Positions 1,467-53,039 of a stretch of 64,000 nt of DNA are shown here, one piece after another. A program made the position numbers and the translations under genes. The DNA is taken from NCBI GenBank assembly GCA_043813915.1, contig JBDRKO010000026.1:66236-130235 (forward strand), written 5' to 3'. Source of the stretch: Candidatus Omnitrophota bacterium. GTDB taxonomy: Bacteria > Omnitrophota > Gorgyraeia > Tantalellales > Tantalellaceae. Numbering within the stretch: the stretch's first letter is position 1; every line of letters starts with the position of its first letter. The notes under the pieces were generated by a model. It had not been told where the DNA came from. It worked only from the letters and a program-made list of their open reading frames with translations, and did no database searches.

Positions 1467-3065
1467 ATGAGCAAAAGATCTTTGTATATATGGGTGTTCG
1501 TGTTTTTCGCGTGCATATACTCGTTTTTCTCTATCGGCCATTATGGGGGAGACGGGTACGAGGATTACCTCACGGCCGAAAGCCTCGTTCTTGACGGAAA
1601 TACCGCGTTATATGACAGGCCCGATGATCCCGATGAATTGGAATACAAGACGGGGGCGGGCATAAAAGGCAAGGACGGCAGAATATATTCTTCAGGAAGG
1701 AAGTTGGGCGTTCCGATCCTTATCGCCCCTCTTTACGGAGCGGGTCATCTCGTGTCTTACGTTTTTAAACAGGCGCCCCATGATCATATAACGATGATGT
1801 TCGCTTCCTTCTATAATCCTCTGGTAACGGCCGCCGGTGTTCTTCTCGTTTTGATGATATCCATACATCTCGGGTTTAAACGCAGACTTCTTGTGGTTGT
1901 CGCGTTTTTATACGGCCTCACGACCATGACGATGGTCTATACAAGGACGGGGTTCGCGGATCCTACCCTGGTGGTATTCCTGCTTTTAACCGCGTATTTT
2001 CTGATAACCTATTCCAAAAATCCCAGGATGGTGTATCTGGCTTGGGCGTCCCTATCCATGGTCTATTGCGTGCTTACGAAGGTCAACGGGCTGATATTCC
2101 TCCCATGCTTTATCGTATATCTTATGTGGGTAAGCTGGGAAAAGGGTCAAACTGTTTCAGAGAGATTGAAACCCGTTCTATTTTTCGTTATCCTTACGTC
2201 TTTGCTGACAGCGTGCGCATTGAAATTGGAAAGTATGACCTTCGGCGGTATTTCCAGCTTGGACAGGGCGCGTGCGGCGGGAGGCGCGATACGTATTCTG
2301 GAGGCCGATCATTTTCTGAAAGGGGTTTATTATTATCTGTTCAGCCCCGGTAAGGGGTTTTTGATATACAACATTACGCTTATACCGGCTTTTTTCGCGG
2401 TAAAAAAGATTTTCAAATTACGGAATAAGGAGGCGATACTGTTCTTCCTTATTTTTATCGTCAATCTTGTTTTCTATGCCAAATCGTTCAGGCGCGGTTC
2501 GCTTTTTTCCTGGGGGCCGAGATATCTTCTTCCTTCGGTGCCTTTTATGTCGTTCCTTGTCGGATATTTTCTGGAAGACGCGAAAAGCGTTTTTAAAAAG
2601 ACCGTTATGTGGCTGCTTTCGCTGACAGGTTTTGCGATAATGCTGCCGTGCATGATGGTCAATCAGTCAAAGTTCTATTTTTTTGTAGTGGAAAAACTGA
2701 AACTGGACGAATACTTGATAAACTTTATCCCCGATCTTTCGCCGATAAAAGGAGCATGGTCGATGCTCATATCACGGCTTGCTTATGATCTTGGCGGTGC
2801 GGAACTGCCGTTCGTGTTCGATCCGGATTACAGGCTTGTCGGTGATCCCGTTACTTATCTTATGGAGGGCTATAACTATCTGGATCTGTGGTCCTTAAAG
2901 GTGATACAGCTCGCGCCTGCTTTCGGTCCCTATGTAAACGCTGTTCTGGGGATACTGATATTATCGGCATTCGTGGCTTTATATAAGATATACAGAAACA
3001 GGGATGCCGTATTTGCTTGCGAGGCGCCTAAAGAGGATCGATATGTTAAAAGAATTCGGCCCTGA
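1467..3065 (+). CDS. polytopic membrane glycosyltransferase, GT-C fold (ArnT / PMT / GT39-GT83-like)
   Basis: About 12 predicted TM helices, N-terminal loop with acidic motif (GGDGYEDY), large C-terminal soluble domain; start ATG follows the RtcB stop with an SD-like aaaggat. Confidence 0.5.
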   Translation: MSKRSLYIWVFVFFACIYSFFSIGHYGGDGYEDYLTAESLVLDGNTALYDRPDDPDELEYKTGAGIKGKDGRIYSSGRKLGVPILIAPLYGAGHLVSYVFKQAPHDHITMMFASFYNPLVTAAGVLLVLMISIHLGFKRRLLVVVAFLYGLTTMTMVYTRTGFADPTLVVFLLLTAYFLITYSKNPRMVYLAWASLSMVYCVLTKVNGLIFLPCFIVYLMWVSWEKGQTVSERLKPVLFFVILTSLLTACALKLESMTFGGISSLDRARAAGGAIRILEADHFLKGVYYYLFSPGKGFLIYNITLIPAFFAVKKIFKLRNKEAILFFLIFIVNLVFYAKSFRRGSLFSWGPRYLLPSVPFMSFLVGYFLEDAKSVFKKTVMWLLSLTGFAIMLPCMMVNQSKFYFFVVEKLKLDEYLINFIPDLSPIKGAWSMLISRLAYDLGGAELPFVFDPDYRLVGDPVTYLMEGYNYLDLWSLKVIQLAPAFGPYVNAVLGILILSAFVALYKIYRNRDAVFACEAPKEDRYVKRIRP

Positions 3066-4035
3066 TAATTTTAAAGTAAGAGAGAAAGTGGCGGACAGAC
3101 CGTCGATGGGAAGATACGCTTCTTCCTGCGCGTGGGGGTCCGACATTTTTCATCTCAGGATAGATGCCGATGAGTATACGGAAGCGTCTTTCAGAACATA
3201 TTATCCCGTATTTGAGAAGCACGCCAAAGCGTTAACGGTATTTTTTAACGCTTGTTCTTTCAGAAACTCTGAAAAAGAGGTACTGAAGTGCCGGGACTTG
3301 GGGATAGATATACAGTCGCATGCTTTCTATCATTATACGTATAATGACTATGCCAGCAACAGACATAATATACATCTGGCAAAAGAGTTCTTTGATTCAC
3401 TCGGGGTAGAGACAATAGGTTTTGCCGCGCCGACGGGAAAATGGAACGCGTCTCTTATGAAAGCGTTGGAGGACGAGGGATACAAATACTCATCGGATTT
3501 TTCTTATGATTACATGGCTTTCCCGAGTTATCCTTTGCTGTGCCGCAGGCCTTCACGTGTGATGGAGATACCTATCTTTCCTGTTGCCCCGGAACTTTTT
3601 TTTCAGGGTACGCCTTGCGAAGAGGAAATTGTTCTCGAATATTATAAGAACGCTATAGACGGACTTATAGCGGGAGGGTTACCGGTAATAATTTATGCGC
3701 ATACCAGCCCGGCAATACGTGAGGTGCCTTCATTGCTTGAGGAAATAGCGGACTACGCGGTCGGAAAGAAAGGTCTGAGACCGGTCTCTATGACCGGCCT
3801 TTTTCATATGACGGACGGGAAAGCTCCTGTCCGGGAAAATGTATCCCTGCCCGGAGAGACGGGAAAAATGCCCATGGAAAACTTTTCAGGCAGACGTGTC
3901 CGGCCTGGGATCTTCTCTGCCGTGAAAGACGCCCTGAAAGAAGCTATTGATTTTGAGAGGATAACGCCGGAAGAAGAACTTAAATGCGGGCATGTTAAAA
4001 AAGCGCTTAAACTGCTCGCCAGAAAAATGACTTGA
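3043..4035 (+). CDS. polysaccharide deacetylase-like (CE4 family) protein
   Basis: HLRIDADE...SHAFYHYTY...GFAAPTG pattern typical of NodB-type deacetylase Asp/His metal site; start chosen at ATG 3043 with agagga SD (ORF track start 3004 also possible). Confidence 0.45.
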   Translation: MLKEFGPDNFKVREKVADRPSMGRYASSCAWGSDIFHLRIDADEYTEASFRTYYPVFEKHAKALTVFFNACSFRNSEKEVLKCRDLGIDIQSHAFYHYTYNDYASNRHNIHLAKEFFDSLGVETIGFAAPTGKWNASLMKALEDEGYKYSSDFSYDYMAFPSYPLLCRRPSRVMEIPIFPVAPELFFQGTPCEEEIVLEYYKNAIDGLIAGGLPVIIYAHTSPAIREVPSLLEEIADYAVGKKGLRPVSMTGLFHMTDGKAPVRENVSLPGETGKMPMENFSGRRVRPGIFSAVKDALKEAIDFERITPEEELKCGHVKKALKLLARKMT

Positions 4036-4060: not shown

Positions 4061-5947
4061 ATGGAACATGATATAAACAAACAACTTATAGACATGGCCG
4101 GAAAAAAGAACGGATTGGCCGATGCGCGCTCATTTTTTCTGGACCAGGCCGAGAACGGGTATAACATGCTTCTGTGGAAATGTTATCTTGCGCGGGTCGC
4201 GAACCGCAAAGAAGGGATCAATAAGACCGAAAGGATAGCTATCCTGGGATCATCTAACGTAACGCCGCTTAAAGATAAACTTAAAGTAATGTTCCACGCT
4301 CATGGAGTAGATACGGAATTCTATATGGGGGAATATAATAACTGGTATCAGGAACTTCTGTTCGATGAAAGGTCCGGTCTGTATGGGTTAGGCCCGTCGA
4401 TCGTGGTGATGATATTGAGTTTTCAGGATATTTTTCAGGACTCATATGAGAGCTTACTGTCTTTTTCTCAAGTGAAAGTGAACAGGATCCTGAAAAGAAC
4501 GTTGGGCCATATTATAGACGCGGTTAATTATTTTTGCTCAAAATTCCCTGAAAGCGCCGTATATCTCTCTGTAATACCTCCGGTAGAAGACCCTTCCAGC
4601 TACGCATATTGGCCGGGTACTGTGCATAAAAGCCGCGGATATTTTCATAAATTTTGCGGGACAATTGCGGATTATTGGAAAGAAAACGATAATATTTTCA
4701 TGCTGAATACCGGAAACATTATTCAAGGATATAAAAAAGAACAGATAGCGGATAAAAGGTATTGGTATTTGGGGAGAATAAGATACACGGACCTGTTCTT
4801 CTCGGAACTATCAAGAGAGCTAGTTAAAGTGTACAATATGGCGCATTCCATTCCCAAAAAATGTCTTATTGTTGATCTGGATGGAACGCTTTGGGGCGGG
4901 ATCATAGGAGAAGACGGACGCAGTAATATTATCCTGGGGCAGGACGGTTTGGGGCAGGCATATCAGGATTTCCAGAGGGAGATACTTAAATTATACGAAA
5001 AGGGCATAATACTCGCGATATGCAGTAAAAATAATGAATCTGATGTGGATATATTATTACATATGGATAAAAGAATGTTGCTGAAGGATGAACATTTCAC
5101 ATCAAAACGGATAAACTGGAATGATAAGGCCTCCAACATAGAGGAAATAGCGAAAGAGATAAACATAGGGCTTGATTCCATAGTATTCCTCGACGATAAT
5201 CCTGTTGAGAGAGAATGGGTCAGGGAAAACCTTCCTGAAGTGACCGTTCCTGAGATGCCGGAAGATCCCTCTAGGTATGCGGAATTCCTGAAGAATTCAA
5301 AATGGTTTAATTCGTATAATACAACAAAGGAAGATCGTATAAGGAACATTACTTATAAAGCTGTTGCGAAAAGCAAAAAACTTAAAGAAAAGTCGAAAAA
5401 CATTAATAGTTTTATTAGAGATCTCAAACAACAGGTTATCATAGAAGATGTTAATACATCTACTATTTCAAGAGCCGTACAATTAAGCCAAAAGACCAAT
5501 CAGTTTAAGATGAATCATAAAAGATACGAATTGTCTGAAATGAAAAATATGATCAAGGATAAGGACTATAAGATATACACACTCAGTCTAAAGGATTGTT
5601 TTTGTGATTATGGCATAATCGGACTTATGATCATGAAGAACGATCATATTGATGATTTCATCTTAAGCTGCCGAGTTATAGGTAGAAAGATAGAAGATGT
5701 AATTATAGATTGGCTGAAGAAAAGGTTAAAGAAGGAGGGCTACAGTCACATATATGGTAGATATAGAACCAGTACTAAAAATTCTGTCTGCAAAGATGTA
5801 TATAAAGAGAATGGGTTTATATCAAAGGAAGAGGGTGTGCTGAATACCGGAGGTGCTAATACAATTAACAAATATAATTTGAAGGGTAAGGTTGGATTCT
5901 CATCTTTCAAGGATATTATTAAGGTGAAGTATGAAGGGAAAAGATGA
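4061..5947 (+). CDS. FkbH-like HAD-superfamily (subfamily IIIC) domain protein with C-terminal GNAT-like domain
   Basis: LIVDLDGTLWGG HAD motif I, followed by ICSKNNESD and FLDDNP motifs characteristic of FkbH/HAD-IIIC; stop TGA 5945-5947 abuts the ACP gene. Confidence 0.6.
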   Translation: MEHDINKQLIDMAGKKNGLADARSFFLDQAENGYNMLLWKCYLARVANRKEGINKTERIAILGSSNVTPLKDKLKVMFHAHGVDTEFYMGEYNNWYQELLFDERSGLYGLGPSIVVMILSFQDIFQDSYESLLSFSQVKVNRILKRTLGHIIDAVNYFCSKFPESAVYLSVIPPVEDPSSYAYWPGTVHKSRGYFHKFCGTIADYWKENDNIFMLNTGNIIQGYKKEQIADKRYWYLGRIRYTDLFFSELSRELVKVYNMAHSIPKKCLIVDLDGTLWGGIIGEDGRSNIILGQDGLGQAYQDFQREILKLYEKGIILAICSKNNESDVDILLHMDKRMLLKDEHFTSKRINWNDKASNIEEIAKEINIGLDSIVFLDDNPVEREWVRENLPEVTVPEMPEDPSRYAEFLKNSKWFNSYNTTKEDRIRNITYKAVAKSKKLKEKSKNINSFIRDLKQQVIIEDVNTSTISRAVQLSQKTNQFKMNHKRYELSEMKNMIKDKDYKIYTLSLKDCFCDYGIIGLMIMKNDHIDDFILSCRVIGRKIEDVIIDWLKKRLKKEGYSHIYGRYRTSTKNSVCKDVYKENGFISKEEGVLNTGGANTINKYNLKGKVGFSSFKDIIKVKYEGKR

Positions 5948-6173
5948 AATGAAAGAAAAACTTAAGTTCATAATAGCTAACTGCTGCAGTATAGACACTT
6001 CCGCGGTAGATGATAACGCTAAGGTGAATGAGACACCTAACTGGGATTCTTTCGGGCATCTTCAGATAATGTCATGCGTCGAACAGGAGTTCGGTGTCTC
6101 CTTTGATACCAGGACCATCTCGGCTCTGCTTTCATATAAGGATATACTGGGGTATCTGAAGGAGAACACTTAG
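5931..6173 (+). CDS. acyl carrier protein
   Basis: About 75-80 aa acidic protein with NWDSFGHLQIM, a DSL-like phosphopantetheine attachment motif; alternative start ATG 5949 right after the FkbH stop. Confidence 0.6.
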   Translation: MKGKDEMKEKLKFIIANCCSIDTSAVDDNAKVNETPNWDSFGHLQIMSCVEQEFGVSFDTRTISALLSYKDILGYLKENT

Positions 6174-6194: not shown

Positions 6195-7316
6195 ATGGAG
6201 AGAAATATAAACATACGAAACTATAGAGAGGAAGATACACCGGCCGTGGTGGGACTTCTTTCCGGATTTTATGACAACGTAAAGACGGAGGAGGACTGGA
6301 GGCGTCTTTACCTCGATAATCCGGCGGGAAGCGCGGTAATATCACTTGCTGAAGAGACGTCCGGGAAGAAACTGATAGGCCATTACTCGGTGATAAAGAT
6401 GGAGATGTCCGTTTTCGGCGAGAAACGGTTTTGCGGAAAAGGGGAAGGTGAGATATTCGATCTTCCGTTCTTAATAGGACTTTTGAAAAGAGGTGTAAAA
6501 ATAGAGCCTTCTTCGGAAAAGCTTATCAGGCACACTATGAACGCGGCGCTTGCCTGTGGGCTAGAGATGGTTTGTACCAATCCGAACGATCTGGCTCTCA
6601 AGTCTCATATCGCGGCGGGATATGACAGTTTGCGTCAGGAATTCAGCATATTTGTTTTGCCGCTAAAAAGCCGATATCTTTCTCATGTATTAACGAAAAA
6701 AAAGAACTTGGCCGGCACGGCATGTTTCATAAGTTCTTTAGTAGCACCACTTATACACTTTCTCTATTCCGTAAAAGTGTTATTCTTCGGGAGAACCGGG
6801 GTATGTCTTGACCCTATCGGGTCTTTCGACAGCCGTACGGATATCTTCGCGGAAGCATTAGGGAAGGATAAGCATGTTATCGCCATAGACCGAAGCGCGG
6901 GCCATCTTAATTGGCGTTTCGGAAAGGAAGAATATAAAAAATATGTTATACGGGACGGCGGTAAGGATATAGGATATGCCGTTTTGCATGTTTTCATCAA
7001 CCCTAACGGTTTTAAAGAGGCGTGCCTTGTGGATTATCTTTTTCTGCCGGAGGGGTGGGGAAAGTTTAAAGGTACTATTGTCAAAATAACGGAAGAAGCA
7101 AAGAAGTATGATAGCGATCTTCTGCGTGTTAACTATATGCATGACAGGAAAGAAACGTTCGGACTGGCAGGTGTATTAAAGGAACTTTTTTTTACGAAGA
7201 GGTCCGACAAAAGGAACATCACTGTCTTTCTGTCTTCACAGCTCGAAGATGAAAAAGAAAAAATATTGGATATAAAAAACTGGTTCTTTACGGATCTTTA
7301 TTTCGAGGGATATTAA
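6195..7316 (+). CDS. GNAT / FemAB-like acyltransferase family protein
   Basis: About 370 aa, size and position typical of FemAB/BioF2-like GNAT acyltransferases that accompany FkbH-ACP pairs in glycan loci; no sharp motif identified. Confidence 0.4.
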   Translation: MERNINIRNYREEDTPAVVGLLSGFYDNVKTEEDWRRLYLDNPAGSAVISLAEETSGKKLIGHYSVIKMEMSVFGEKRFCGKGEGEIFDLPFLIGLLKRGVKIEPSSEKLIRHTMNAALACGLEMVCTNPNDLALKSHIAAGYDSLRQEFSIFVLPLKSRYLSHVLTKKKNLAGTACFISSLVAPLIHFLYSVKVLFFGRTGVCLDPIGSFDSRTDIFAEALGKDKHVIAIDRSAGHLNWRFGKEEYKKYVIRDGGKDIGYAVLHVFINPNGFKEACLVDYLFLPEGWGKFKGTIVKITEEAKKYDSDLLRVNYMHDRKETFGLAGVLKELFFTKRSDKRNITVFLSSQLEDEKEKILDIKNWFFTDLYFEGY

Positions 7317-9110
7317 GTGCAGATAAAAAAAGTGAACATAATTATCCTGAATTATAACGGGAAGGACCTTCTGGCGAAATATCTTCCTTCTGTAATAGAA
7401 GCGGGTGATCTGTCCCGGCATGAATGCAAGGTGTCGGTTATCGATAATAAAAGTTCTGACGGTTCCGTAGAGTTCCTGCGTTCCGATTTTCCCGGGGTCG
7501 ATATTTTTGTCGCGAAAGAAAACAGGGTGCTCTGTTCATTTAACGAAGTCGTACGTTCCGTGACGGAAGAGATAGTTATATTCCTGAACAACGATATCGG
7601 ACTGGACCCCGGTTTTGTAGACCCGCTTATCAGCCATTTCGGTAATGATGGGATTCTTTTTGCGGCGCCGAAAGAATGTTCTCCCGACGGCGAATTCCGT
7701 GGCGGGGTCAATCGCGGTGTTTTTAAATTCGGGTTTTTCAGGAACCTTGTCAAAGAGGGGTCCGAAGATACCTGCCAATATTCCATGGCGGTCCATGGCG
7801 GTGCGTTCGACCGTAAAAAATTCAATGAACTCGGCGGGTATGACGATATGTATCTTCCGGGTTATGTTGAGGACCTTGACCTGTGTTACCGGGGCTGGAA
7901 ACGCGGTTGGTACGGGTTATATGAACCGCGGAGCGTTATGTTCCATGAAGGATGCGCAAGTTTTAACAAAACATACGGGCATGACAGGAAACTTACGATA
8001 GTGCACAGGAACACTTTTCTTTTCTTCTGGAAGAACGTCACCTCTTTCCGCCAGATATTTCTGCATGTTCTTTTTATTGTCCCGCGGTTGGTCCTGTCTC
8101 TGGTGACGGGACGTCTATCATTGGTGTTGGGGTTTTTTCAGGCTCTCAAACGTATCGGCCGGGCTTTAAAGGGGAGACGGGATGTGCGGGGGACATTTAC
8201 CTTAACTGATGAAGAAGTGCTGCGCCGGATAGAAAGCGGCTTTACGGGAATTGAAGAGGAGAAGATCACGCAGGAAGAAGTCCTGTCGGCCAACGTTGAA
8301 TATCATAACAAGATCGCGGCGCGTTACGAAAAGGACGCGTCGACGCGTCTTTTGTTCGAAGAGAGCCCGAATTCTGGACGGCGCATAGAGGGTGTGATGA
8401 AATATCTGGAAGAAGAAACTGCGGGCGAAAAATTCCTTGATATAGGATGCGGGACAGGTAATGTCCTGAGCCGGGCGGCTAAGCGTTTCAAAGAAGCCGT
8501 AGGAATAGACGCCTCGGCTGAAATGCTCAAGATATCCGAAGCAAAGGGCCTGAATGTCGTGCAGGGCGACGCTCTCGCTCTTCCTTGGCCTGCCGGTACG
8601 TTTGACGCCGTAAGCGCTTTTTCGGTTGTGCATCATTTTCTGCGTCCCGGGGATATTTTGAAAGAGGCATACAGGGTACTTAAGGACGGCGGATACCTTT
8701 ATACCGATTGGGATCCTAACGCAAAGGCCGCTTCGCTTTTCGACGCCGGCAGCCAATCAAAACTTTTTACCTTTATTCACGGATTTTATATGTCCGTGAA
8801 GAGAAAAGTCCGCAGTTTGCCTGAAAACGTCAGAAGCGAGTCGGATGAGCTCGAACAGCTCGCGAATATAGCAGAGTACCATCATAAAAAAGGGCTGGAT
8901 GCGGGAAAGATCTCCTCAGAACTCGAGCACATAGGATTTAAAGACGTAAAAGTGTATTTCCATAACAATACGGACGATCTTTTCCGCCCGGAACGCCTGA
9001 ACCCGTGGGAGATGACCAAAATAACCGCAAGAAGAGCCCTGAACTATGATCTAGGCGTTCCGCGCCCCGAAAATATCTGCTCTCAATTCGCTATCTTAGC
9101 CAGAAAATGA
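7317..9110 (+). CDS. bifunctional glycosyltransferase family 2 (N-term) / class I SAM-dependent methyltransferase (C-term)
   Basis: GTG start immediately after GNAT stop; N-term ILNYNGKDLL...VIDNKSSDGS (GT2) with DxD-like region; C-term LDIGCGTGNV (SAM motif I) and DAVSAFSVVHH (motif II/III). Confidence 0.6.
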   Translation: MQIKKVNIIILNYNGKDLLAKYLPSVIEAGDLSRHECKVSVIDNKSSDGSVEFLRSDFPGVDIFVAKENRVLCSFNEVVRSVTEEIVIFLNNDIGLDPGFVDPLISHFGNDGILFAAPKECSPDGEFRGGVNRGVFKFGFFRNLVKEGSEDTCQYSMAVHGGAFDRKKFNELGGYDDMYLPGYVEDLDLCYRGWKRGWYGLYEPRSVMFHEGCASFNKTYGHDRKLTIVHRNTFLFFWKNVTSFRQIFLHVLFIVPRLVLSLVTGRLSLVLGFFQALKRIGRALKGRRDVRGTFTLTDEEVLRRIESGFTGIEEEKITQEEVLSANVEYHNKIAARYEKDASTRLLFEESPNSGRRIEGVMKYLEEETAGEKFLDIGCGTGNVLSRAAKRFKEAVGIDASAEMLKISEAKGLNVVQGDALALPWPAGTFDAVSAFSVVHHFLRPGDILKEAYRVLKDGGYLYTDWDPNAKAASLFDAGSQSKLFTFIHGFYMSVKRKVRSLPENVRSESDELEQLANIAEYHHKKGLDAGKISSELEHIGFKDVKVYFHNNTDDLFRPERLNPWEMTKITARRALNYDLGVPRPENICSQFAILARK

Positions 9111-9148: not shown

Positions 9149-10378
9149 TCATGCCATGACCGATCCGCCGCAGACAAGCATCTGGCTTCCCACAACGTAA
9201 TCCGTGTAAGATGAAGCCATCAGAAGCACGACGTTCGCCGTGTCGATCGGTTCCGCGTTCCTTTTAAGGGGAACATCCATAGCCATCTTCTTTTTGAACC
9301 ATTCGGGTATATGCGCTCCGAGATCGGTGTCCGTGAAACCGGGGGAGACGACATTGAAGAAGATGTTCTTAGAGGCGTATTCCACGGCAAGCGAACGTGT
9401 AAGGCCCAGAAGAGCGGTTTTAGCGGTCACATATTTCGTGAAGCCGGCCGGCGGGGCGCTGTTGGTATACACTGTGGTGATATTGACGACTTTACCGTAG
9501 CCGTTCTTTTCCATTACGGGAAGGACAGCTTTCGTGCAGTTGAAAGCGCCTTTTACCGCTACATCAATATCTTTTTGAATATCTTCCCATTCGAGTTTTT
9601 CAAATTCAACGGGTATAGCATCACTCATAGCGTTATTTACGAGGATGTCGATCTTACCGAACTCCTTCAACGCTTTTGATATCATTTTGCTGACTTCGTC
9701 TTTATCTGACACATCGGCTTTAAGGGCGACGGCCCTTTTTTTTGAAGATACAATATCTTTCACGACACGATCGGCATCTTTTTTGCCGAGCCTGTAATTG
9801 ACTATCACGTCCGCTCCGTGATGCGCGAAAAGTTTTGCTGTGGCCTCTCCGATCCCGCGGCTTGCGCCGGTTACAAGAACGACCTTACCCTTAAAATCCA
9901 GATTCACGGCTTTTTTTTTAAGTTCCTTCATTGTTACACCTCTTTTTGCGGGTGGATTCACCAGGACACCTACGGTTCCGGTGATAACGGTCTCGTTTTT
10001 CTGGTTGGTTATGGCGATAACTATATCAATTTTACCCGAAATGTCATTTTTTGATCTTACGTTACCGGTTATCATGAGGATATCACCGGCCTTGACGGGT
10101 TTAAGATATTTAGCGGAATGATCAAGGATAAGGGCGTTCTCCCCGGGAAGGTACATACCGACAAGTGTAGATACGTAAGAATAGGCTAAAAGACCGTGCG
10201 CTACACGGCTCCGGAAACGCGTTTTCCTGGCGAATTCTTCGTTTACATGAATAGGGCTGTGGTCACCGGTCAATTCCGCGAAATGTGATATGGTCTTTTC
10301 GGTGATCCCGGCCTTGAAAGAGGCCTTTTGCCCTACGGTGATCTCGCCTATAGTATACTTTTTAGCGGCTTTATTCAT
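9149..10378 (-). CDS. MaoC-like (R)-hydratase/dehydratase hot-dog domain fused to short-chain dehydrogenase/reductase (FabG-like)
   Basis: N-terminal HSPIHVNEEFARKTRF...VAHG hot-dog motif; C-terminal VTGASRGIG Rossmann motif, NNA, and YxxxK (YVTAK) SDR catalytic motif; the only minus-strand gene in the window. Confidence 0.65.
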   Translation of the reverse strand: MNKAAKKYTIGEITVGQKASFKAGITEKTISHFAELTGDHSPIHVNEEFARKTRFRSRVAHGLLAYSYVSTLVGMYLPGENALILDHSAKYLKPVKAGDILMITGNVRSKNDISGKIDIVIAITNQKNETVITGTVGVLVNPPAKRGVTMKELKKKAVNLDFKGKVVLVTGASRGIGEATAKLFAHHGADVIVNYRLGKKDADRVVKDIVSSKKRAVALKADVSDKDEVSKMISKALKEFGKIDILVNNAMSDAIPVEFEKLEWEDIQKDIDVAVKGAFNCTKAVLPVMEKNGYGKVVNITTVYTNSAPPAGFTKYVTAKTALLGLTRSLAVEYASKNIFFNVVSPGFTDTDLGAHIPEWFKKKMAMDVPLKRNAEPIDTANVVLLMASSYTDYVVGSQMLVCGGSVMA

Positions 10379-10579
10379 ATGGACTTATGGTACGCTATCC
10401 CGCATACATTGTCAAGCGCTGCAAGGTTTTACCCGGTATGTTTACATCCGATCCGGAGGGGATATCACGGGATACAGGATCGGACAAGGTTCTACGCTAA
10501 AAGAGCAGTATTTACTTGCCCTATAAGGTATTTATATTATAATATCAGTCTGACACACACTTTACAAAAGGAGTTGGAT

Positions 10580-11548
10580 ATGGCTGGATTCTATAATAAT
10601 AAAAGGGTGCTTGTTACAGGCGCTGACGGTTTTATGGGGTCGCATCTTACCGAAAAACTGCTTGCCGAAGGGGCAAAAGTGTCGGTTTTTGTCCGGGGAA
10701 GCTCGACGATAGGCACCACCCAGTACGCGCTTAGGAATATTAAGCATATAGAGAAAAATCTGGAGGGGATAATTACCGGCAATATAGCCGCGCAGGACGC
10801 CAAGGACCTGGTGATAAAGAACAGACCCAGCATAATATTTCACCTTGCCGCGGACGCATATGTCCCCAATTCTTTCGATCATCCCATGGAGGTCATGGAG
10901 ACGAACCTGATAGGTACGCTGAATATGCTCCATGCGGTAAAAGAGAGCAAGGGAATAAAAAGGATAGTTTGTACGTCTTCCAGTGAGATATACGGCATGA
11001 CCATCGGCGGGTCCATAAATGAGGACCATTTGCTTTATCCCTCATCTCCCTATGCCGCGAGTAAGGTAGCGGCGGATAAGTATTGCTACTCATACTGGAA
11101 TACGTATCATCTGCCGGTAGCTATCATCAGGCCGTTCAATACTTACGGCCCTCGGCATACCTATGACGTAATACCGAAATTTATAGACATGGCGCTTAAG
11201 AACAAAACTCTTACCGTACATGGTACAGGCCGGCAGTCGAGGGATTTCACGTATGTAGACGACATGATAGACGCTTTCATGTTAATGGGCAGGCATGAGG
11301 ACGCTATAGGCAAAGCGGTCAACTTCGGTACCGGTGAGGCTATAACCGTAAATTACATAGCGAAGAAAGTGAAAGAGCTCTCCGGATCAAAGTCTAAGAT
11401 AGTGCATACGAAAGACCGGAAGGCGCAGGTGCCGAAGCTTTTATGCGATTATTCGCTGGCTAAGAAATTATTCGGATGGAAACCGAAGATATTTATTGAT
11501 GAGGGTCTCAGGAGGAACATAGAATGGGAGAAAGAGAACCGGGTGTAA
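10580..11548 (+). CDS. NAD-dependent sugar-nucleotide epimerase/dehydratase (extended SDR)
   Basis: VTGADGFMGSHL Rossmann motif, YAASK catalytic YxxxK; ATG 10580 preceded by aaaggag SD; ORF-track upstream extension to 10328 rejected. Confidence 0.7.
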   Translation: MAGFYNNKRVLVTGADGFMGSHLTEKLLAEGAKVSVFVRGSSTIGTTQYALRNIKHIEKNLEGIITGNIAAQDAKDLVIKNRPSIIFHLAADAYVPNSFDHPMEVMETNLIGTLNMLHAVKESKGIKRIVCTSSSEIYGMTIGGSINEDHLLYPSSPYAASKVAADKYCYSYWNTYHLPVAIIRPFNTYGPRHTYDVIPKFIDMALKNKTLTVHGTGRQSRDFTYVDDMIDAFMLMGRHEDAIGKAVNFGTGEAITVNYIAKKVKELSGSKSKIVHTKDRKAQVPKLLCDYSLAKKLFGWKPKIFIDEGLRRNIEWEKENRV

Positions 11549-12006: not shown

Positions 12007-12236
12007 AGAGTGTCAAAGTGTCAGAGTATCAGAGTGTCAGGTTGGACCGATGCGGGAAGAAGGGACAGAGGGAAGAAAGACGAAGGAAGAAGGACGAAGG
12101 AAGAAAGACGCGGGCGGACGTGTAATGTTTTATGTGTGATGTGTAAGGACGAGATTGCTTCCCCCCGTCGCTTTGCTCCGCAAAGCGGAGCAGCGGGGGT
12201 CGCAATGACGGGTGGGAGGAAAGGTTGAAAGGGCGA

Positions 12237-13499
12237 ATGATTCATAAAACAGAGAATGTATTAAGCGAGGAAATAATCCTGGCAAAAAACTGGATATTGA
12301 ATTCGGGGATACAGAATACAGACGGCAAAAATCAAGGGGGGTTCAATTCGTGGTTTGATGTAGGATCCGGGGGGTATCCGTATGTTTATTCCGAGATAAC
12401 GGGATACGGGATAACAACGCTTTTGTATTTGAAACTATTTTTTGACGGTCAATTTTTAGATCGAGCGAGGTATGCGGCGGATTGGCTCATAAAAAATGCC
12501 GTCAGTGAAAACGGCGGGGTGAGAACAAGGGACTATCAGCAGGATATGTATGAGTCGGAGGCGTATTCTTTTGAAAGCGGTAACATATATACTTTTGACA
12601 GCGGAATGGTCCTATACGGAATGATCAGTCTATACAGGGACTGCAAGGATAATAAATATCTCGAAATATCAAAAAAAATAGCTTCATTTTTGATGAACCA
12701 TATGCGGAAGGAAGATGGGTTTTTCTACGCGTCATACGATCCCGCTACTAAAGAAAAAGCGGATTCTCCGTGGAAATGGTCTACGCAGAGCGGTAGTTAC
12801 CACGCGAAATTAGCTTTGGGATTTACCGATCTATATGAGGTAACCGGGGAAGAGGTCTATAAGGACGCCGCGCTATCTCTTTGCGGCAAAGCAATGGACT
12901 TGCAGGATCCTTCCGGAAGATTTATAACATCCCGCGCTGATAACAGTACTCATATGCATCCTCATGCGTATTCAGCCGAAGGGCTTTTGTACACCGGTAT
13001 ACATTTTGAAGAGGACGATCTTATTGATTCCGCCGAGAGAGCGGTTAAATGGTCTTTAGATAGCCAAAATCCGGACGGAGGGATACCCAAAAAACATAAC
13101 GGGCAGGACTTTATAAATTTGTACAGGGCCGATATACTTGCTCAGATACTCAGGTTAGGGGCTCTTTTAAAAAGTTTGGGAAGATTGGATGAAACATATT
13201 CATCTAAATTGGAGAAATTACGCAATAGCTTGCTTTCTTTTCAGTATAAAGAAAATGATCGGCAAAAAGGCGGATTCTATTATGGGTTCACCTTGGACGG
13301 AAAGAAGAAAGAACATATCAATTCATGGTGCAGTATGTTCGCTTTACAAGCTCTTATCATGTACGAGGAAAGCCTAGGGAGAGACTTAAGGAAAAGTGTC
13401 AGAGTGTCCCCGTACCAGTCTCTTCGTTCCGGTACAGGACAGGCGGCGTGTCAGAGTGTCAAGAAAGATAACACTAACATAATGGAGTATTTTGTATAA
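12237..13499 (+). CDS. hypothetical protein, repeated Gly-rich/aromatic segments suggestive of an (alpha/alpha)6-toroid sugar-modifying fold
   Basis: Periodic motifs ENGGVRTRDY / EDGFFYASYDP / PSGRFITSRAD / PDGGIPKKHNG; last ~25 codons are encoded by a GTGTCAGAG repeat module so the true C-terminus is uncertain. Confidence 0.3.
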   Translation: MIHKTENVLSEEIILAKNWILNSGIQNTDGKNQGGFNSWFDVGSGGYPYVYSEITGYGITTLLYLKLFFDGQFLDRARYAADWLIKNAVSENGGVRTRDYQQDMYESEAYSFESGNIYTFDSGMVLYGMISLYRDCKDNKYLEISKKIASFLMNHMRKEDGFFYASYDPATKEKADSPWKWSTQSGSYHAKLALGFTDLYEVTGEEVYKDAALSLCGKAMDLQDPSGRFITSRADNSTHMHPHAYSAEGLLYTGIHFEEDDLIDSAERAVKWSLDSQNPDGGIPKKHNGQDFINLYRADILAQILRLGALLKSLGRLDETYSSKLEKLRNSLLSFQYKENDRQKGGFYYGFTLDGKKKEHINSWCSMFALQALIMYEESLGRDLRKSVRVSPYQSLRSGTGQAACQSVKKDNTNIMEYFV

Positions 13500-18811: not shown

Positions 18812-19237
18812 GGGAGACGAAAGACGAGGGAAGAAGGACGAGAGACGAGGGAAGAGGGACGACTGTTAAGTATCAAGGAGAATAGTTTAAAAGTTAAAGT
18901 TCTGTGGACACCTTTCCCGGGGTAGTGTAAACCCGACCCTCAAGATGTCCCCAGAATATATTTTTACTGGTTACAGGTAACAGACAAAGGGCGTAAAGCC
19001 TGCCTGTCCTGCCTGCGGCAGGTAAACCGGCAGGCAGGGAGTCACCGCGCTTCGCGCTAGAGTCATCATTCGCTACGCTCATTAGGGTCAGAGAGTCAGA
19101 GGGGAAGAAAGACGAAGGAAGAGAGACGCGGGAAGAGTCGCGGAGAGGAGCACGGTTAACTTGCATTTATATTGAATCTATGATAAACTATACTTTATCA
19201 TAGATTTGTTAAATTGTTGAAAAATGGAGTGTGTTTT

Positions 19238-20464
19238 ATGTCTAAACTTTACAAGAGAAGAATAATCGATGAAATACAAGATTATCTTTTTACGGATGAT
19301 ATTATTGTTTTGCATGGGGCAAGACAGGTGGGGAAAACGAGTATTCTTTACTGGCTTAGGGATCTTTTATCCAGGGAAGAAAAGATAGTTTATTATGTCG
19401 ATCTCGAGGATTCTCGTTTTGTTAGGATATTAGACCAGGGGATCGACAGTTTTGTTGACCATTTAAAAGAGGAGGGGATCTATAGCGAAAAGGAAAGCGC
19501 GCATTCTGAAAAAGTTTATGTTTTTATAGATGAGATCCAGTATTTAAATGACCCTTCTTCTTTTCTAAAATTAACAGCGGATCACCATAAATTTTTGAAA
19601 TTGATAGTTACGGGTTCATCAAGCTTTGATATCCAGAGTAAATTTAAGGATTCCCTTGTTGGAAGAACAGTCGATTTTGAGATATTTAATTTATCATTTA
19701 GTGAGTTCCTTGAGTTCAAAGAGTATGTTTTTAATGAAAAGAATGTTTTTTCGGATAAAAAGGTAGAAGAATTACGGGGTTTGTTCTTAGAATATGTTCT
19801 TTATGGGGGGTATCCCAAGATCGTGTTATCTCCTGAAGTTCATAGAAAGGAAAAATATTTGCAGCAGATCATAGATACGTATGTCAGAAAAGATATTCGG
19901 GACCTTGCCGATGTCAAAGATATCGATAAATTTAACAAATTAGTAGAGATCCTAGCCGCGCAAAGCGGGAATTTATTGAATATAACAGAGCTATCAAATA
20001 CTTGCGGAATAGCAAAGCAGACGGTTGAGAGATATTTGTTTATTTTGGAGAACACTTATATTTTAAAGCAAGTAAGACCCTATCATAAAAATATACGCTC
20101 AGAATTATTCAAAGTCCCTAAAATTTTCTTTTATGATAGCGGGTTAATGCAAATGCTATGGCTTAAAAAGTTACAGAAGGAAGTTCTTGGAAGCGTGTTT
20201 GAGACGGCAGTTTTTTCTGAGTTAGTTAAGAAATATCACAAAAACAGTGTTTTGTATTGGAGAACCGCTGATAAAAAAGAGATAGATTTCATTTTGCGGG
20301 ATAAAAACGGGATCTTGCCTATAGAGGTTAAGTTGAATTTTCAGCAATTTAATTCGTCATCTATCAGGTACTTTAATAAAAAGTACGACAATACAAAATA
20401 TAAAGTGGTTGGTCTAAAAGGAGACTGCGAAGAGGGATCTTATGTTTATCCATGGCAGCTTTAA
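19238..20464 (+). CDS. AAA+ ATPase, DUF4143-type (archaeal ATPase family)
   Basis: Walker A GARQVGKTS, Walker B VFIDEIQ; about 400 aa with C-terminal DUF4143-like region; flanked on both sides by repeat mosaics. Confidence 0.6.
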   Translation: MSKLYKRRIIDEIQDYLFTDDIIVLHGARQVGKTSILYWLRDLLSREEKIVYYVDLEDSRFVRILDQGIDSFVDHLKEEGIYSEKESAHSEKVYVFIDEIQYLNDPSSFLKLTADHHKFLKLIVTGSSSFDIQSKFKDSLVGRTVDFEIFNLSFSEFLEFKEYVFNEKNVFSDKKVEELRGLFLEYVLYGGYPKIVLSPEVHRKEKYLQQIIDTYVRKDIRDLADVKDIDKFNKLVEILAAQSGNLLNITELSNTCGIAKQTVERYLFILENTYILKQVRPYHKNIRSELFKVPKIFFYDSGLMQMLWLKKLQKEVLGSVFETAVFSELVKKYHKNSVLYWRTADKKEIDFILRDKNGILPIEVKLNFQQFNSSSIRYFNKKYDNTKYKVVGLKGDCEEGSYVYPWQL

Positions 20465-36660: not shown

Positions 36661-37680
<1,020 letters not shown>

Positions 37681-37762
37681 TTGGAATGCAATAGCGATCT
37701 TTAAGGAGAAGGCTTTTTAAAAAAGCCTTCTCCTTAAAGGATAATTACGTAACGGAGCTGAT

Positions 37763-38944
37763 ATGAAAAAAACCCTAAGGGATATACAGATAAGCGGGAA
37801 AAGAGTTCTTATGCGGGCGGATTTTAACGTGCCGTTGAACGAAGAGCGTGTTATTACCGATGACTCGAGAATAACCGCGGCTATGCCTTCCATAAAATAT
37901 ATACTGGATAACAGCGGAAAGCTTATTCTGATGAGTCATTTGGGGCGTCCTAAGGGGGAAGTTGACGACGCTTTGCGGTTGGACCCCGTAGCAAAACGTT
38001 TATCGGAACTTTTGGGAAAAAATGTCAAGAAGATGCCGGATTGTATCGGCAGCGATGTGGAAACGGCCGTAAAGGATATGCGGGACGGCGACGTGATACT
38101 TCTTGAAAACCTGAGGTTTCATAAAGAAGAGAAAAAGAACGATCCTGACTTTTCTAAAAAGCTCGCGTCTCTGGGAGAAGTGTTCGTCGAGGACGCGTTC
38201 GGGACTTGTCATAGAGCGCACGCTTCTACTGTAGGAGTTACAGCGTCTCTGCCCGGAGTTGCCGGATTTCTGGTAGAAAAAGAGATAGAATATTTCGAGA
38301 AGGTGACCAAGTCACCCGAAAAACCGTTCTGTTTAATACTCGGCGGCGCCAAAGTATCGGACAAAATACCCCTTATAGAGAACATGCTCGGGAAAATAGA
38401 TTTCCTGCTCATCGGAGGGGCTATGGCCTATACTTTTCTGAAATCGCGTCTTAAGGGGGTGGGTGCGTCAAGGGTAGAGGATGGTATGGCCGATACGGTT
38501 GAGAAGATATTCGCACTGGCAAAAGAAAAAGGTGTCAGTATTTTTCTCCCGCAGGATCATATAGTCGCGAAAGAGATCAGCCCGAAAAGCAGGCGCAAGG
38601 TGGTAAACGAACATATACCTGACGGATGGATAGGACTTGATATCGGACCAAAGACGGTCAGAACTTACTGTAATGTGATAAAGGAATCAAAGACCATCGT
38701 GTGGAACGGACCTGTCGGTCTTTTCGAGATGAAACCTTTTATGGGAGGCACTAAAAAAATCGCACAGATGATGTCTAAAGCCGATGCCACCACGGTAATA
38801 GGCGGAGGAGATACGGCGGCGGCCGTTAATCAGCTCGGGCTCGGCGGGAAGATGTCGCATATGTCGACCGGCGGAGGGGCGTCGCTGGAATATCTTGAAG
38901 GAAAAGAGTTGCCCGGGATAACGGCATTAGAAGATAAAGACTAA
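37763..38944 (+). CDS. pgk: phosphoglycerate kinase
   Basis: RADFNVPL, MSHLGRPKG, GGGASLE motifs. Confidence 0.9.
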   Translation: MKKTLRDIQISGKRVLMRADFNVPLNEERVITDDSRITAAMPSIKYILDNSGKLILMSHLGRPKGEVDDALRLDPVAKRLSELLGKNVKKMPDCIGSDVETAVKDMRDGDVILLENLRFHKEEKKNDPDFSKKLASLGEVFVEDAFGTCHRAHASTVGVTASLPGVAGFLVEKEIEYFEKVTKSPEKPFCLILGGAKVSDKIPLIENMLGKIDFLLIGGAMAYTFLKSRLKGVGASRVEDGMADTVEKIFALAKEKGVSIFLPQDHIVAKEISPKSRRKVVNEHIPDGWIGLDIGPKTVRTYCNVIKESKTIVWNGPVGLFEMKPFMGGTKKIAQMMSKADATTVIGGGDTAAAVNQLGLGGKMSHMSTGGGASLEYLEGKELPGITALEDKD

Positions 38945-39143
38945 AGTGTCAGAGTGTCAAAGTGTCAGAGTGTCAGAAAAAAAAGAAGGAAGAGAGACGA
39001 GAAACGAGGAATGTCTTCCCAGTGTCATCCCGAGCGAGCAGAGTGAGTCGAGGGATCTGGATCGCTGGATCGGAAATCTTGACTCTTTGGATTTTTTAAA
39101 TACGTGACCATATTACCATTTAAAAACTAGGAACGGAGAAAAA

Positions 39144-39926
39144 ATGAGAAGACCTATGATCGCGGGAAACTGGAAGATGTATAAGGATATAAGCGAGGCA
39201 ATAGACTTGGCCAACGGTATAAAAAGAGCCGTTTTTGACGTGAGCGGTGTAGATATCGTGATATGTCCGCCGTTCACGAATTTAAGCGAAGTTGGGGAGA
39301 TCTTGACCGAAACGAATATCGGGCTCGGAGCCCAGAACTGTTATTGGGAAAAAGAAGGGGCGTATACCGGGGAAGTGTCGGTATCGATGCTCAAAAGCAT
39401 AGGATGCGGATACGTGATCATCGGGCATTCCGAGAGACGCGGTTATTTCGGCGAGACGGACAAGACCGTTAACGCTAAAGTAAGGAGCGCCATGGAAGGC
39501 GGATTGGTGCCTATCATGTGCGTGGGAGAGACTTTGGAAGAGAGAGAGAACGGCAAAACGCTGGAAGTTGTCAGAAGACAGGTCATAGGAGGACTTGAAG
39601 GGTTGAGAGAGGAAGATCTGGACGGTCTGGTGGTAGCTTATGAACCGGTATGGGCGATAGGAACGGGGAAGACCGCTACGCCCGGGCAGGCCCAGGAAGT
39701 CCATTTGGCGATCAGAACTCTTCTGAAGGAAATTTTTTCAGAGACTTTTTCGTCTTCCCGTCGTATACTCTATGGTGGAAGTGTAAATCCGGGCAACGTT
39801 GAACAGCTTATGTCCGAAGAAGATATCGACGGAGGTCTTATCGGCGGCGCCAGTTTAAAAGCCGATAGTTTTTCGGATATGATCAAAAAAACATCAGAAC
39901 TTTATCAGTGTTCAAAAAAAGGATAA
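39144..39926 (+). CDS. tpiA: triosephosphate isomerase
   Basis: IAGNWKM, IGHSERR, AYEPVWAIGTG motifs. Confidence 0.9.
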   Translation: MRRPMIAGNWKMYKDISEAIDLANGIKRAVFDVSGVDIVICPPFTNLSEVGEILTETNIGLGAQNCYWEKEGAYTGEVSVSMLKSIGCGYVIIGHSERRGYFGETDKTVNAKVRSAMEGGLVPIMCVGETLEERENGKTLEVVRRQVIGGLEGLREEDLDGLVVAYEPVWAIGTGKTATPGQAQEVHLAIRTLLKEIFSETFSSSRRILYGGSVNPGNVEQLMSEEDIDGGLIGGASLKADSFSDMIKKTSELYQCSKKG

Positions 39927-52013: not shown

Positions 52014-52578
52014 GACCTAGGAGCAGAAGACAGAAGTCAGACGTCAGAGTGTAGGGGCACGGCATGACGTGCCCTATATGGTTTACGAATCACCCCCGCA
52101 GATTTCTTCGAAATCTAAGCGCGGGGGCAGGCGAAGGACGAGAAAAAAGTGTTAAGTGTTAAGTTTTAAGTGTTATGTGCGGTGTATAATGGCAAAGCGC
52201 ATAGGGTTAAGAAGTCAGAAGGAAGAAGCGTACCGGACTATAGACTATTGACCATAGACTATAGACCAAGAGCTTATAAGTCAATCGTCAATGGTCTGTT
52301 CGGGCTGTTCCCGAGTCACGAAGCACTAATTACTGGTCGAAGAATGTCCCCAGAATAAGGCGCATAGCATTAAGAAAGACGAAGGAAGAAGGACGCGGGA
52401 CGAAGGACGAGATTGCCGCGTCGCTTCGCTCCTCGCAATGACGGAGTAGTCACGAATCACGAATTACTGGACGAAGAATGTCCCCAGAATATATTTTTAT
52501 TTCTGTTCACGTTAAAGAAAGTCCAAGCCTAGAATGATCTCCCGTTAAAGATATCAGCAACTACAGTTATTAATGCAA

Positions 52579-52607
52579 AGACCGGAACTATTTTCGGTCT
52601 TTTTTTT
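52579..52607 (+). terminator. rho-independent terminator (agaccggaa...ttcggtct followed by T8)
   Basis: Short GC stem followed by tttttttt run, just upstream of the AbrB-like gene promoter. Confidence 0.5.
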
Positions 52608-52616
52608 GTTTTTTAA

Positions 52617-52660
52617 TTGACAAGTATTAATACTTGTTATATACTTGTTGCATACTTGTT
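52617..52660 (+). promoter_or_regulatory. promoter (TTGACA-17-TATACT) with three direct ATACTTGTT repeats phased at 11 bp overlapping the -10 region
   Basis: TTGACA 52617-52622, TATACT 52640-52645; ATACTTGTT at 52630, 52641, 52652 (one helical turn apart), immediately upstream of the AbrB-like gene. Confidence 0.5.
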
Positions 52661-52690
52661 ATATCCGATGAACGAATAAGGAGAGAAAGC

Positions 52691-52870: not shown

Positions 52871-53039
52871 AAAGCAGTACAAGCACAGCGTGACCATTAA
52901 CGACAAACGGAGAGACAGGAAACGGAACAATGATCGTATGAGCAAAGAGTCCTGCGACCAGTCACTGCAGGTAGTTTTTAATACCCTATATAAGGATCAG
53001 GTAAGAGCTCTTTATAGAGCAATATCAAAAGGGAATTGA
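52863..53039 (+). CDS. small basic protein (58 aa) of unknown function, 8-nt overlap with upstream AbrB-like gene
   Basis: ATGGGTAA overlap with the AbrB-like stop (translational coupling); Lys/Arg-rich N-terminal half; no recognisable family. Confidence 0.3.
   Translation: MGKKQYKHSVTINDKRRDRKRNNDRMSKESCDQSLQVVFNTLYKDQVRALYRAISKGN

Follow-up and report, generated by a model that had tools for sequence, protein, structure and literature searches.

A hot-dog/reductase fusion linked to FkbH and an acyl carrier protein in an Omnitrophota glycan cluster and a proposed route from glyceryl-ACP to lactyl-ACP

We report on a fusion gene in a stretch of 64,000 nucleotides from a Candidatus Omnitrophota bacterium (assembly GCA_043813915.1, contig JBDRKO010000026.1, positions 66,236 to 130,235 of the forward strand; this whole stretch is referred to as the window). 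The gene lies at 9149-10378 on the minus strand and encodes a MaoC-type hot-dog domain followed by a short-chain dehydrogenase/reductase (SDR). Despite the generic names of its members, the family forms a coherent module with an FkbH-domain protein and an acyl carrier protein (ACP) in the glycan clusters of several phyla. FkbH proteins take 1,3-bisphosphoglycerate, dephosphorylate it and load the glyceryl group onto a dedicated ACP via a Cys thioester. In the model that we suggest, the fusion protein very probably works on the ACP loaded by FkbH; we also regard as probable, with clearly less confidence, the complete scheme in which glyceryl-ACP is converted to lactyl-ACP within a glycan-biosynthesis cluster. 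The observations behind the model are the domain architecture, the catalytic residues, the phylum-spanning linkage to FkbH and ACP, the existence of split versions and the glycan context. The FkbH-domain enzyme, which was absent from the preliminary description of the window, is the partner that defines the role of the fusion. The three central features are:

9149 to 10378, minus strand: MaoC hot-dog/SDR fusion gene, proposed to encode a glyceryl-ACP dehydratase and pyruvoyl-ACP reductase (open reading frame (ORF), Pfam, identical protein from a metagenome-assembled genome (MAG), AlphaFold2 (AF2) model).
4061 to 5947, plus strand: FkbH-domain protein of 628 amino acids (aa) with a HAD-IIIC phosphatase domain and a C-terminal transferase domain, the proposed glyceryl-ACP former (TIGR01686).
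5931 to 6173, plus strand: acyl carrier protein of 80 aa, with Ser40 in a WDSF motif as the putative phosphopantetheine site (alignment to ACPs).

The linkage was seen in two sets of loci. For the first set, which consists of fusion loci from assemblies and genomes (L001 to L009), FkbH genes were sought within 10 kb. A contig scan with the full-length alignment picked generic SDR motifs, with 77 of its 80 loci being plain FabG-like and three informative, and the 77 plain-SDR loci were reused as a negative control. FkbH was present within 10 kb in 9 of 9 fusion loci (7 distinct) versus 0 of the 77 plain-SDR loci, and a homologue of the 80-aa ACP was present in all seven distinct fusion loci. 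The fusions in L001 and L002 are 69% identical to that of the window, and these loci are fully syntenic with it, including the divergent orientation. In L003 (50% identity), FkbH, ACP and fusion lie within a NeuB/DegT/CMP-transferase cluster. The remaining loci come from a deltaproteobacterium (L004), KSB1 (L005 and L006), a gammaproteobacterium (L007), Calothrix (L008) and an unclassified MAG (L009). We rejected a functional importance of the minus-strand orientation because the fusion is co-oriented with FkbH and ACP in most other lineages (L003, L004, L005 and L007 to L009).

The second set comes from an independent metagenome scan that was keyed on the hot-dog motif and covered short-form hot-dogs; a mixed alignment of short- and long-form hot-dogs was too divergent for pattern extraction. 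FkbH was found in 16 of 19 fused loci, the three exceptions being contigs of at most 2.3 kb, and FkbH together with ACP in all six fused loci with at least 3 kb on both sides; the independent observations are somewhat fewer than these counts, as L089 is the L002 contig and L090 and L096 match. Hot-dogs of the same subfamily also occur as stand-alone proteins of about 140-157 aa. Of 20 well-flanked loci, 13 have FkbH next to such a hot-dog, and 8 have a separate SDR gene only 0-4 bp away from it. For instance, L094 carries FkbH, ACP, hot-dog and SDR as four consecutive genes. The occurrence of both fused and split versions makes a good case that dehydratase and reductase work jointly, with FkbH and the ACP as their partners. 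The conserved linkage to a dedicated ACP also strongly supports the earlier suggestion that the substrate is ACP-bound.

As a separate observation, five metagenome loci (L109, L126, L129, L144 and L155) have a stand-alone hot-dog next to FkbH and ACP and no SDR within 3 kb. Such cassettes might stop at pyruvoyl-ACP or use another reductase.

In the window, the FkbH protein scores 288 bits with TIGR01686 (cutoff 146.65) and 67.8 bits with TIGR01681 (cutoff 35.75), and matches 3slr (BF1531) with an E-value of 2.5e-47. Its residues D272/D274/T276 (DxDxT), S322, K356, D378/D379 and S536-C537-R538 are at least 95% conserved among 27 linked homologues. The 80-aa protein aligns over its full length to ACPs (6lvt, E 8e-6), with Ser40 on the serine of their DS motif, and its Pfam PP-binding match is below the cutoff (14 bits versus 20.8). 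The ACP gene starts before the FkbH gene ends, with an overlap of 17 nt (5931-5947), and the same overlap occurs in L001 (11508-11524), which suggests translational coupling. The fusion gene had been described as following directly on the ACP module; instead, the ACP gene lies about 3 kb away, with two genes (6195-7316 and 7317-9110) in between.

The fusion gene itself is an ORF of 409 aa with an ATG start in the ORF listing of the window, and public records hold a 100% identical protein of a Candidatus Omnitrophota MAG under the name 'SDR family oxidoreductase'. Among the 63 ORFs of at least 150 aa in the window, all other minus-strand ORFs overlap plus-strand ORFs. Two of them, the only ones that rival their plus-strand partner in length, were tested as real genes and rejected: 47093-48310 is a shadow under an aconitase-family gene and 53202-53807 a shadow under the gene for ribosomal protein L13, and neither has a family match of its own. 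The GC skew is positive across the whole window; it comes down to 0.04 in a single bin, that at 8-10 kb with the fusion gene, and a real gene on the opposite strand would be expected to have this effect. Thus, as the preliminary description had it, the fusion is the lone supported minus-strand gene of the window; the ORF and Pfam matches equally bear out its claim of a MaoC domain N-terminal to an SDR, i.e. a hydratase-then-reductase order that is the reverse of that in MFE-2. The domains and motifs of the fusion are:

9944 to 10378, minus strand: hot-dog domain of the hydratase-2 type, approximately residues 1-145 (PF01575; matches to PhaJ1 5cpg and HTD2 3ir3).
9149 to 9895, minus strand: FabG-like classical SDR domain, residues 162-409, and stop codon (Pfam; 2uvd; Foldseek).
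10247 to 10264, minus strand: hydratase-2 motif D39-H-S-P-I-H44 with the catalytic Asp and His (invariance; alignment to GDrNPvH of PhaJ1).
9419 to 9475, minus strand: SDR active-site stretch from T302 via Y316 to K320 (invariance; alignment to 2uvd).

The N-terminus matches MaoC_dehydratas (PF01575) over residues 19-118 (E 4e-18, 65.5 bits versus a cutoff of 27) and FAS1_DH_region over residues 20-133, and the C-terminus matches adh_short (165-359, E 1e-50) and adh_short_C2 (171-405, E 1e-52). The hot-dog/dehydratase families matched at E<=0.01 are MaoC_dehydratas, FAS1_DH_region and 4HBT only, and no polyketide synthase (PKS)-type dehydratase is among the listed Pfam families of the protein. 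The SDR half matches adh_short at 1e-50 versus 5e-10 for the PKS ketoreductase (KR) model. MaoC and/or SDR Pfam domains are present in all of the best 120 of 7811 scored homologues. The AF2 model has a mean pLDDT of 88.8, and its hot-dog half shows a central helix wrapped by a beta-sheet. In Foldseek comparisons of this model with the PDB, only the SDR half was matched (TMq <= 0.57); the best 50 matches are single-domain SDRs, with no experimental structure of a two-domain hot-dog/SDR protein among them.

Both halves carry catalytic residues of their families. The hot-dog half matches PhaJ1 (5cpg, E 1e-20), human HTD2 (3ir3, E 2e-19) and the A. caviae PhaJ (1iq6), and G38-D39-H-S-P-I-H44 aligns on the GDxNPxH motif of (R)-specific enoyl-CoA hydratases. 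D39 and H44 are invariant in 22 short-form homologues, and at least one hydratase motif is present in all 118 full-length homologues. The Asn of the motif is replaced by Ser41 in the window protein (GDHSPIH); among close homologues this position is Ser in 98 of 118 and Asn in 18 of 118. We tried the motif Ser (GDxS versus GDxN) as a marker of FkbH linkage and rejected it because many FkbH-linked hot-dogs keep the Asn. The SDR half is 40% identical to Bacillus anthracis FabG (2uvd; E 2e-46, Foldseek TMt 0.92) and has the cofactor-binding motifs TGxxxGxG (TGASRGIG, 170-177) and, in the place of NNAG, NNAM (248-251). Y316, K320 and T302 do not vary among 22 short-form members. T302 aligns with the catalytic Ser of 2uvd, and Ala274 with the Asn of the canonical Asn-Ser-Tyr-Lys tetrad; family-wide (120 homologues), about 76% have Thr at the T302 position and about 24% have Ser. 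Thus, of the residues expected in the preliminary description, Asp/His and Tyr/Lys are present, and the SDR triad is Thr-Tyr-Lys, not Ser-Tyr-Lys.

In the pathway that we propose, the FkbH protein would, in a first step, dephosphorylate 1,3-bisphosphoglycerate and load the glyceryl group onto the 80-aa ACP, a function that is assigned here from the known role of the FkbH family on the basis of family membership and motif conservation. Second, the hot-dog domain would strip glyceryl-S-ACP of its C3 hydroxyl and C2 proton to give 2-hydroxyacryloyl-ACP, an enol that would tautomerise to pyruvoyl-S-ACP. Third, with NAD(P)H as the reductant, the FabG-like SDR would reduce the 2-oxo group, and lactyl-S-ACP would result. 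Fourth, a tandem-GNAT protein encoded downstream of the ACP may pass the lactyl group on to a sugar, where a NodB-type deacetylase may have exposed an amine to receive it. We infer the substrate, reaction order, product and acceptor in this scheme. Glyceryl-ACP offers a beta-hydroxyl and an alpha-proton for dehydration but lacks a keto group; the reductase would therefore need the product of the dehydratase, and dehydration followed by reduction fits the N-to-C order of the domains in the fusion.

The best family matches of the fusion are FabG, acetoacetyl-CoA reductase and PhaJ, and these favor an alternative in which the protein combines an (R)-specific enoyl hydratase with a 3-oxoacyl reductase and its substrates are acyl chains of C4 or longer on ACP or coenzyme A (CoA), e.g. 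3-hydroxybutyryl/crotonyl for sugar N-acylation. 3-Hydroxybutyryl is frequent among the N-acyl groups of bacterial amino sugars, and FabH-like genes lie near the cassette in L004 and L007. The abbreviation 'Hb' for this group appears in a published study (PMC5378307). However, the FabG and acetoacetyl-CoA reductase equivalogs of NCBIfam score far under their cutoffs (TIGR01830 for FabG, 199 bits versus 297.75), as do all 25 listed models of these and related enzymes. Moreover, FkbH, and not a condensing enzyme, is the near-obligate neighbor, and the FabH gene in L007 has a separate ACP and SDR of its own. In the scanned ORFs of the window there is no ketosynthase (KS) or thiolase; the KS domain was sought in the fusion and in all plus-strand ORFs of at least 150 aa but 62730-63980. 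As a source of 3-oxo or 3-hydroxy chains of C4 or longer is thus missing, the likely substrate is the C3 glyceryl-ACP. For these reasons, we consider action on C4 or longer chains unlikely, and the generic 3-hydroxyacyl/enoyl processing envisaged in the preliminary description is not borne out.

Two clusters contain additional genes. L004 (8001-16906) includes two ACPs, a FabH-like condensing enzyme, a FemAB-like Acetyltransf_6 protein and radical SAM/SPASM proteins, and in L007 (3742-5751) ACP, SDR and FabH occur as a further set. In these clusters, the FkbH unit may be the start of acyl groups that are longer or of a different kind.

The glyceryl-to-lactyl chemistry has a precedent in PKS loading modules of the type DH-KR-FkbH-ACP (DH, dehydratase), such as those of bryostatin (BryA) and FR901464 (Fr9). 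The DH and KR of the FR901464 module are said, in work by He et al. in Angew Chem in 2014, to reach lactyl via pyruvoyl-ACP, and the same is reportedly true of the bryostatin module (Sudek et al., J Nat Prod, 2007). The window shares with these modules the FkbH, ACP, dehydratase and ketoreductase functions and the proposed chemistry from 1,3-bisphosphoglycerate to glyceryl-ACP, pyruvoyl-ACP and lactyl-ACP. However, the PKS modules are covalently joined in a megasynthase and are followed by a ketosynthase, while the window proteins are discrete and come without a KS in the scanned ORFs; the dehydratase in the window is a MaoC/PhaJ-type single hot-dog and the reductase is of the FabG type; and the context is glycan biosynthesis, such that lactyl would be a decoration rather than a polyketide starter. 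We therefore read the window cassette as a free-standing counterpart of the PKS FkbH loading modules and not as a member of the PKS family. FkbH-type PKS loading modules have been described to form D-lactate-ACP from 1,3-bisphosphoglycerate and ACP (PMC7901079).

A second known system, the methoxymalonyl-/hydroxymalonyl-ACP pathway (FkbG-K, OzmB, ZmaN/D/G/E), shares FkbH and a dedicated ACP with the window, and there, too, glyceryl-ACP is tailored on the carrier. Its tailoring is oxidative (3-hydroxyacyl-CoA dehydrogenase and acyl-CoA dehydrogenase) and includes O-methylation, whereas the window has a dehydratase and a reductase. In a corresponding alternative, the SDR would oxidise glyceryl-ACP at C3 or C2, and the hot-dog would serve as a thioesterase or accessory domain. 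Dehydrogenases indeed act after the FkbH/ACP pairs in the FkbGHIJK and Zma pathways; moreover, SDRs are reversible, and a methyltransferase domain dependent on S-adenosylmethionine (SAM) is encoded next door to the fusion (7317-9110). By contrast, the 3-hydroxyacyl-CoA dehydrogenase and acyl-CoA dehydrogenase families on which those pathways rely were not found here, the hot-dog keeps the invariant Asp/His dyad of hydratases, and the methyltransferase domain is missing from the syntenic L001. We regard such an oxidative route as improbable and return to the conversion of glyceryl-ACP to lactyl-ACP.

Regarding single enzymes, the folds of PhaJ/HTD2 and FabG match the two halves of the fusion, and the Asp/His dyad is shared with 5cpg, 3ir3 and 1iq6. 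The window protein differs in that both halves are fused in one chain and in having Ser41 for Asn, Thr302 for Ser and Ala274 for Asn; in addition, we propose that it acts on a 2,3-dihydroxy C3 acyl group by way of a 2-oxo intermediate, where FabG has a 3-oxo group. Like the fusion, MFE-2/Fox2 has an SDR and a hydratase-2 hot-dog on a single polypeptide (matches to 2et6, 1s9c and 1pn2). In MFE-2, however, the SDR is N-terminal and is accompanied by a double hot-dog and SCP2, while the window protein has a single hot-dog, then the SDR, and no SCP2; and MFE-2 acts on CoA substrates in beta-oxidation, with the hydratase followed by a dehydrogenase on C3.

The cassette is embedded in a glycan-biosynthesis cluster that, according to family scans, spans approximately 1.4-28.8 kb of the window; the remainder of the window contains housekeeping genes. 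The cluster holds PMT-like membrane glycosyltransferases, GT1, GT2, GT4 and GT9 enzymes, an initiating sugar transferase, a UDP-GlcNAc 2-epimerase, a LegB-like 4,6-dehydratase and a NeuD-like hexapeptide acyltransferase. On the plus strand, the genes leading up to the 3' end of the fusion are, in order, those for a NodB-type deacetylase, FkbH, ACP, a protein of 373 aa that matches no family and a GT2/SAM-methyltransferase protein. The neighboring features are:

3004 to 4035, plus strand: NodB-type polysaccharide deacetylase, directly upstream of FkbH (PF01522, E 8e-8).
6195 to 7316, plus strand: tandem-GNAT acyltransferase-like protein of 373 aa, proposed to transfer the acyl group from ACP to acceptor.
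7317 to 9110, plus strand: GT2 glycosyltransferase/SAM methyltransferase fusion, convergent with the hot-dog/SDR gene with a 38-bp gap (Pfam).
10580 to 11548, plus strand: LegB-like NAD-dependent sugar 4,6-dehydratase, first gene of the divergent plus-strand block (Pfam GDP_Man_Dehyd/Epimerase; TIGR04180).

With TIGR04180, the LegB-like dehydratase scores 244 bits, which is under the cutoff of 475. The fusion gene is part of a sugar-modification cluster and has as its neighbor the gene of a 4,6-dehydratase, an enzyme that generates 4-keto sugars; this speaks for a third alternative in which the two domains do not act sequentially on a carrier-bound acyl group; for instance, the SDR could modify a nucleotide sugar and the hot-dog fusion be incidental or regulatory. 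A weak match of the SDR to the Epimerase family of Pfam points in the same direction. However, the SDR is of the classical FabG type and not an extended sugar-nucleotide SDR, and hot-dog and SDR recur, fused or adjacent, beside FkbH and ACP across phyla and sugar contexts. We consider this alternative very unlikely. Sequential action on the FkbH-loaded ACP is what we assume in the following.

For the transfer of the acyl group, the 373-aa protein is the obvious candidate based on its model, which is confident (pLDDT 90.4) and has a tandem-GNAT fold. None of its 22 homologue clusters has a Pfam domain, and those with a named source are all from Omnitrophota/Omnitrophica. This putative transferase was found only in close Omnitrophota-like relatives, and we rejected its conservation across cassettes: the profile match of the neighboring gene was weak in L009 (74%), unconvincing in L005 (25%) and absent in L007 (1%). 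Similarly, direct homologues of the NodB-type deacetylase are confined to the syntenic relatives L001, L087, L089 and L096. In L007, a PF01522 gene lies directly upstream of the fusion-FkbH-ACP block, in a confirmed DegT/NeuC/NeuB/PglD nonulosonic-acid cluster; the deacetylases of L007 belong to the same Pfam family and are too divergent to be regarded as the same gene as that of the window.

In Nod-factor synthesis, NodB, NodA and NodF bring about de-N-acetylation of a sugar and its re-acylation from a dedicated ACP. By analogy, the NodB-type deacetylase genes that flank the cassette in two unrelated lineages would fit a logic in which a sugar is de-N-acetylated and then re-acylated from the ACP, and we find this plausible. 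The acyl chain, the acyltransferase family (tandem GNAT, not NodA) and the pathway that makes the acyl group all differ from the Nod system. The related N-glyceroyl group is known from pseudaminic acid, and a Tannerella paper leaves its genetic origin unassigned (PMC5378307).

Several points weigh against the lactyl scheme. The putative transferase is not conserved between lineages, and some FkbH-linked hot-dogs have no SDR nearby. L004 and L007 also hold FabH-like condensing enzymes, and the products may differ between clusters. No sugar aminotransferase was found in the scanned ORFs of the window. Substrate and product are deduced solely from gene linkage and chemical logic, and activity of the SDR is assumed, given Ala274 and the Thr in place of Ser. 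Lactyl groups on sugars are usually ethers, which are made by another route, and a limited search of the open-access literature turned up no lactyl (2-hydroxypropanoyl) amides or esters on glycans from such genes. The same literature yielded no report of FkbH together with lactyl-ACP or of glyceryl-ACP together with polysaccharide.

The hot-dog/SDR architecture is common and occurs across many phyla. Among 118 full-length homologues, 28 are of the form with approximately 410 aa, like the window protein, and 90 are of a form with approximately 570 aa. In the latter, the alignment shows a double hot-dog in which the Asp/His motif is kept in the extra, N-terminal half and has been lost from the second, a placement that was read from eight members of alignment A1. 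An exhaustive search with the hot-dog and linker graded into stand-alone PhaJ-like proteins, with 1892 representatives at E <= 1e-10. Among 148 listed representatives with retrieved sequence, 28 have at least 370 aa, and these comprise 26 fusions of a single hot-dog with an SDR (381-425 aa) and two double hot-dogs; they are 24-49% identical to the window protein, with the identity extending over the full length in the single-hot-dog fusions. In public records, family members are named 'SDR family oxidoreductase', '3-oxoacyl-ACP reductase' or 'glucose 1-dehydrogenase'. The architecture that the preliminary description suspected of serving a dedicated step is widely distributed, and a limited search of the open-access literature, which an earlier description may have escaped, found no assigned function for the hot-dog/SDR fusion, related or unrelated.

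More tentatively, and without claiming that it is probable, we speculate that there is a widespread pathway of discrete enzymes that leads from 1,3-bisphosphoglycerate to lactyl-ACP, or to pyruvoyl-ACP where the reductase is missing, and from which lineage-specific acyltransferases would place C3 acyl groups on surface glycans, including nonulosonic acids, possibly after de-N-acetylation. In this scenario, fatty-acid-type enzymes would have been recruited independently of the PKS modules, and lactylated glycans would be expected as a class in many uncultured phyla. If the model of the fusion is correct, it would give hundreds of mis-annotated genes a specific role that can be tested, explain where a C3 hydroxyacyl decoration of bacterial surface glycans comes from, and show that the glycerate-to-lactate carrier chemistry of PKS loading modules exists as a free-standing pathway. 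Its practical value would lie in annotation, in the prediction of glycan structures and in a small enzymatic toolkit for lactyl-ACP; it overturns no concept.

The 201-bp spacer at 10379-10579, between the fusion gene and the 4,6-dehydratase gene, has promoter-like elements on both strands:

10387 to 10415, minus strand: promoter-like TTGACA-17-TACCAT, ending 8 nt before the ATG of the fusion gene (promoter scan).
10516 to 10574, plus strand: promoter-like TTGCCC-16-TATAAT (10516-10543) and ribosome-binding site AAAGGAG (10568-10574) for the 4,6-dehydratase gene with its ATG at 10580 (scan; partly conserved alignment block).

The fusion gene has no Shine-Dalgarno sequence. A sigma-70-like TTGACA-17-TAnnAT element is found 7-9 nt before the ATG of the fusion gene in L001/L002/L089, L090/L096 and L087 (L001 7974-8012; L090 9800-9838; L087 1612-1652), while the length of the spacer varies among these relatives from approximately 100 bp to 1.2 kb. 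From these sequence features, we suggest that the mRNA of the fusion gene is leaderless or near-leaderless in this Omnitrophota lineage. The elements on both strands and the conserved TTGACA-17-TAnnAT support the earlier view of 10379-10579 as a divergent promoter region.

At the other end of the fusion gene, the 38-bp gap to the 7317-9110 gene has no terminator-like site. In L001, the homologue of the 7317-9110 gene encodes a GT2 protein only (320 aa, 9206-10168), and there it overlaps the fusion gene by 37 bp. Between the genes for the NeuD-like acyltransferase and the UDP-GlcNAc 2-epimerase, the gene at 12225-13499 (plus strand) encodes a protein of 424 aa with weak, sub-threshold matches to the (alpha/alpha)-barrel glycoside hydrolase families GH88/47/76, and it is syntenic in L001 (5254-6384). 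The AAA_14/DUF4143 ATPase gene at 19214-20464 (plus strand) lies within a run of glycosyltransferase genes with gaps of 400-460 bp on each side and looks like an insertion into the glycan cluster. Further downstream, 1.2 kb between a pseudouridine synthase gene and rplM (52014-53216) contain no ORF of at least 80 aa, no tRNA and no Rfam match at the gathering threshold; the Rfam scan of the whole window likewise returned nothing. Finally, a GAPDH-PGK-TIM operon is present at 36679-39926 on the plus strand, 27 kb downstream; GAPDH makes 1,3-bisphosphoglycerate, the presumed substrate of FkbH, and the proximity of these housekeeping genes is probably coincidental.

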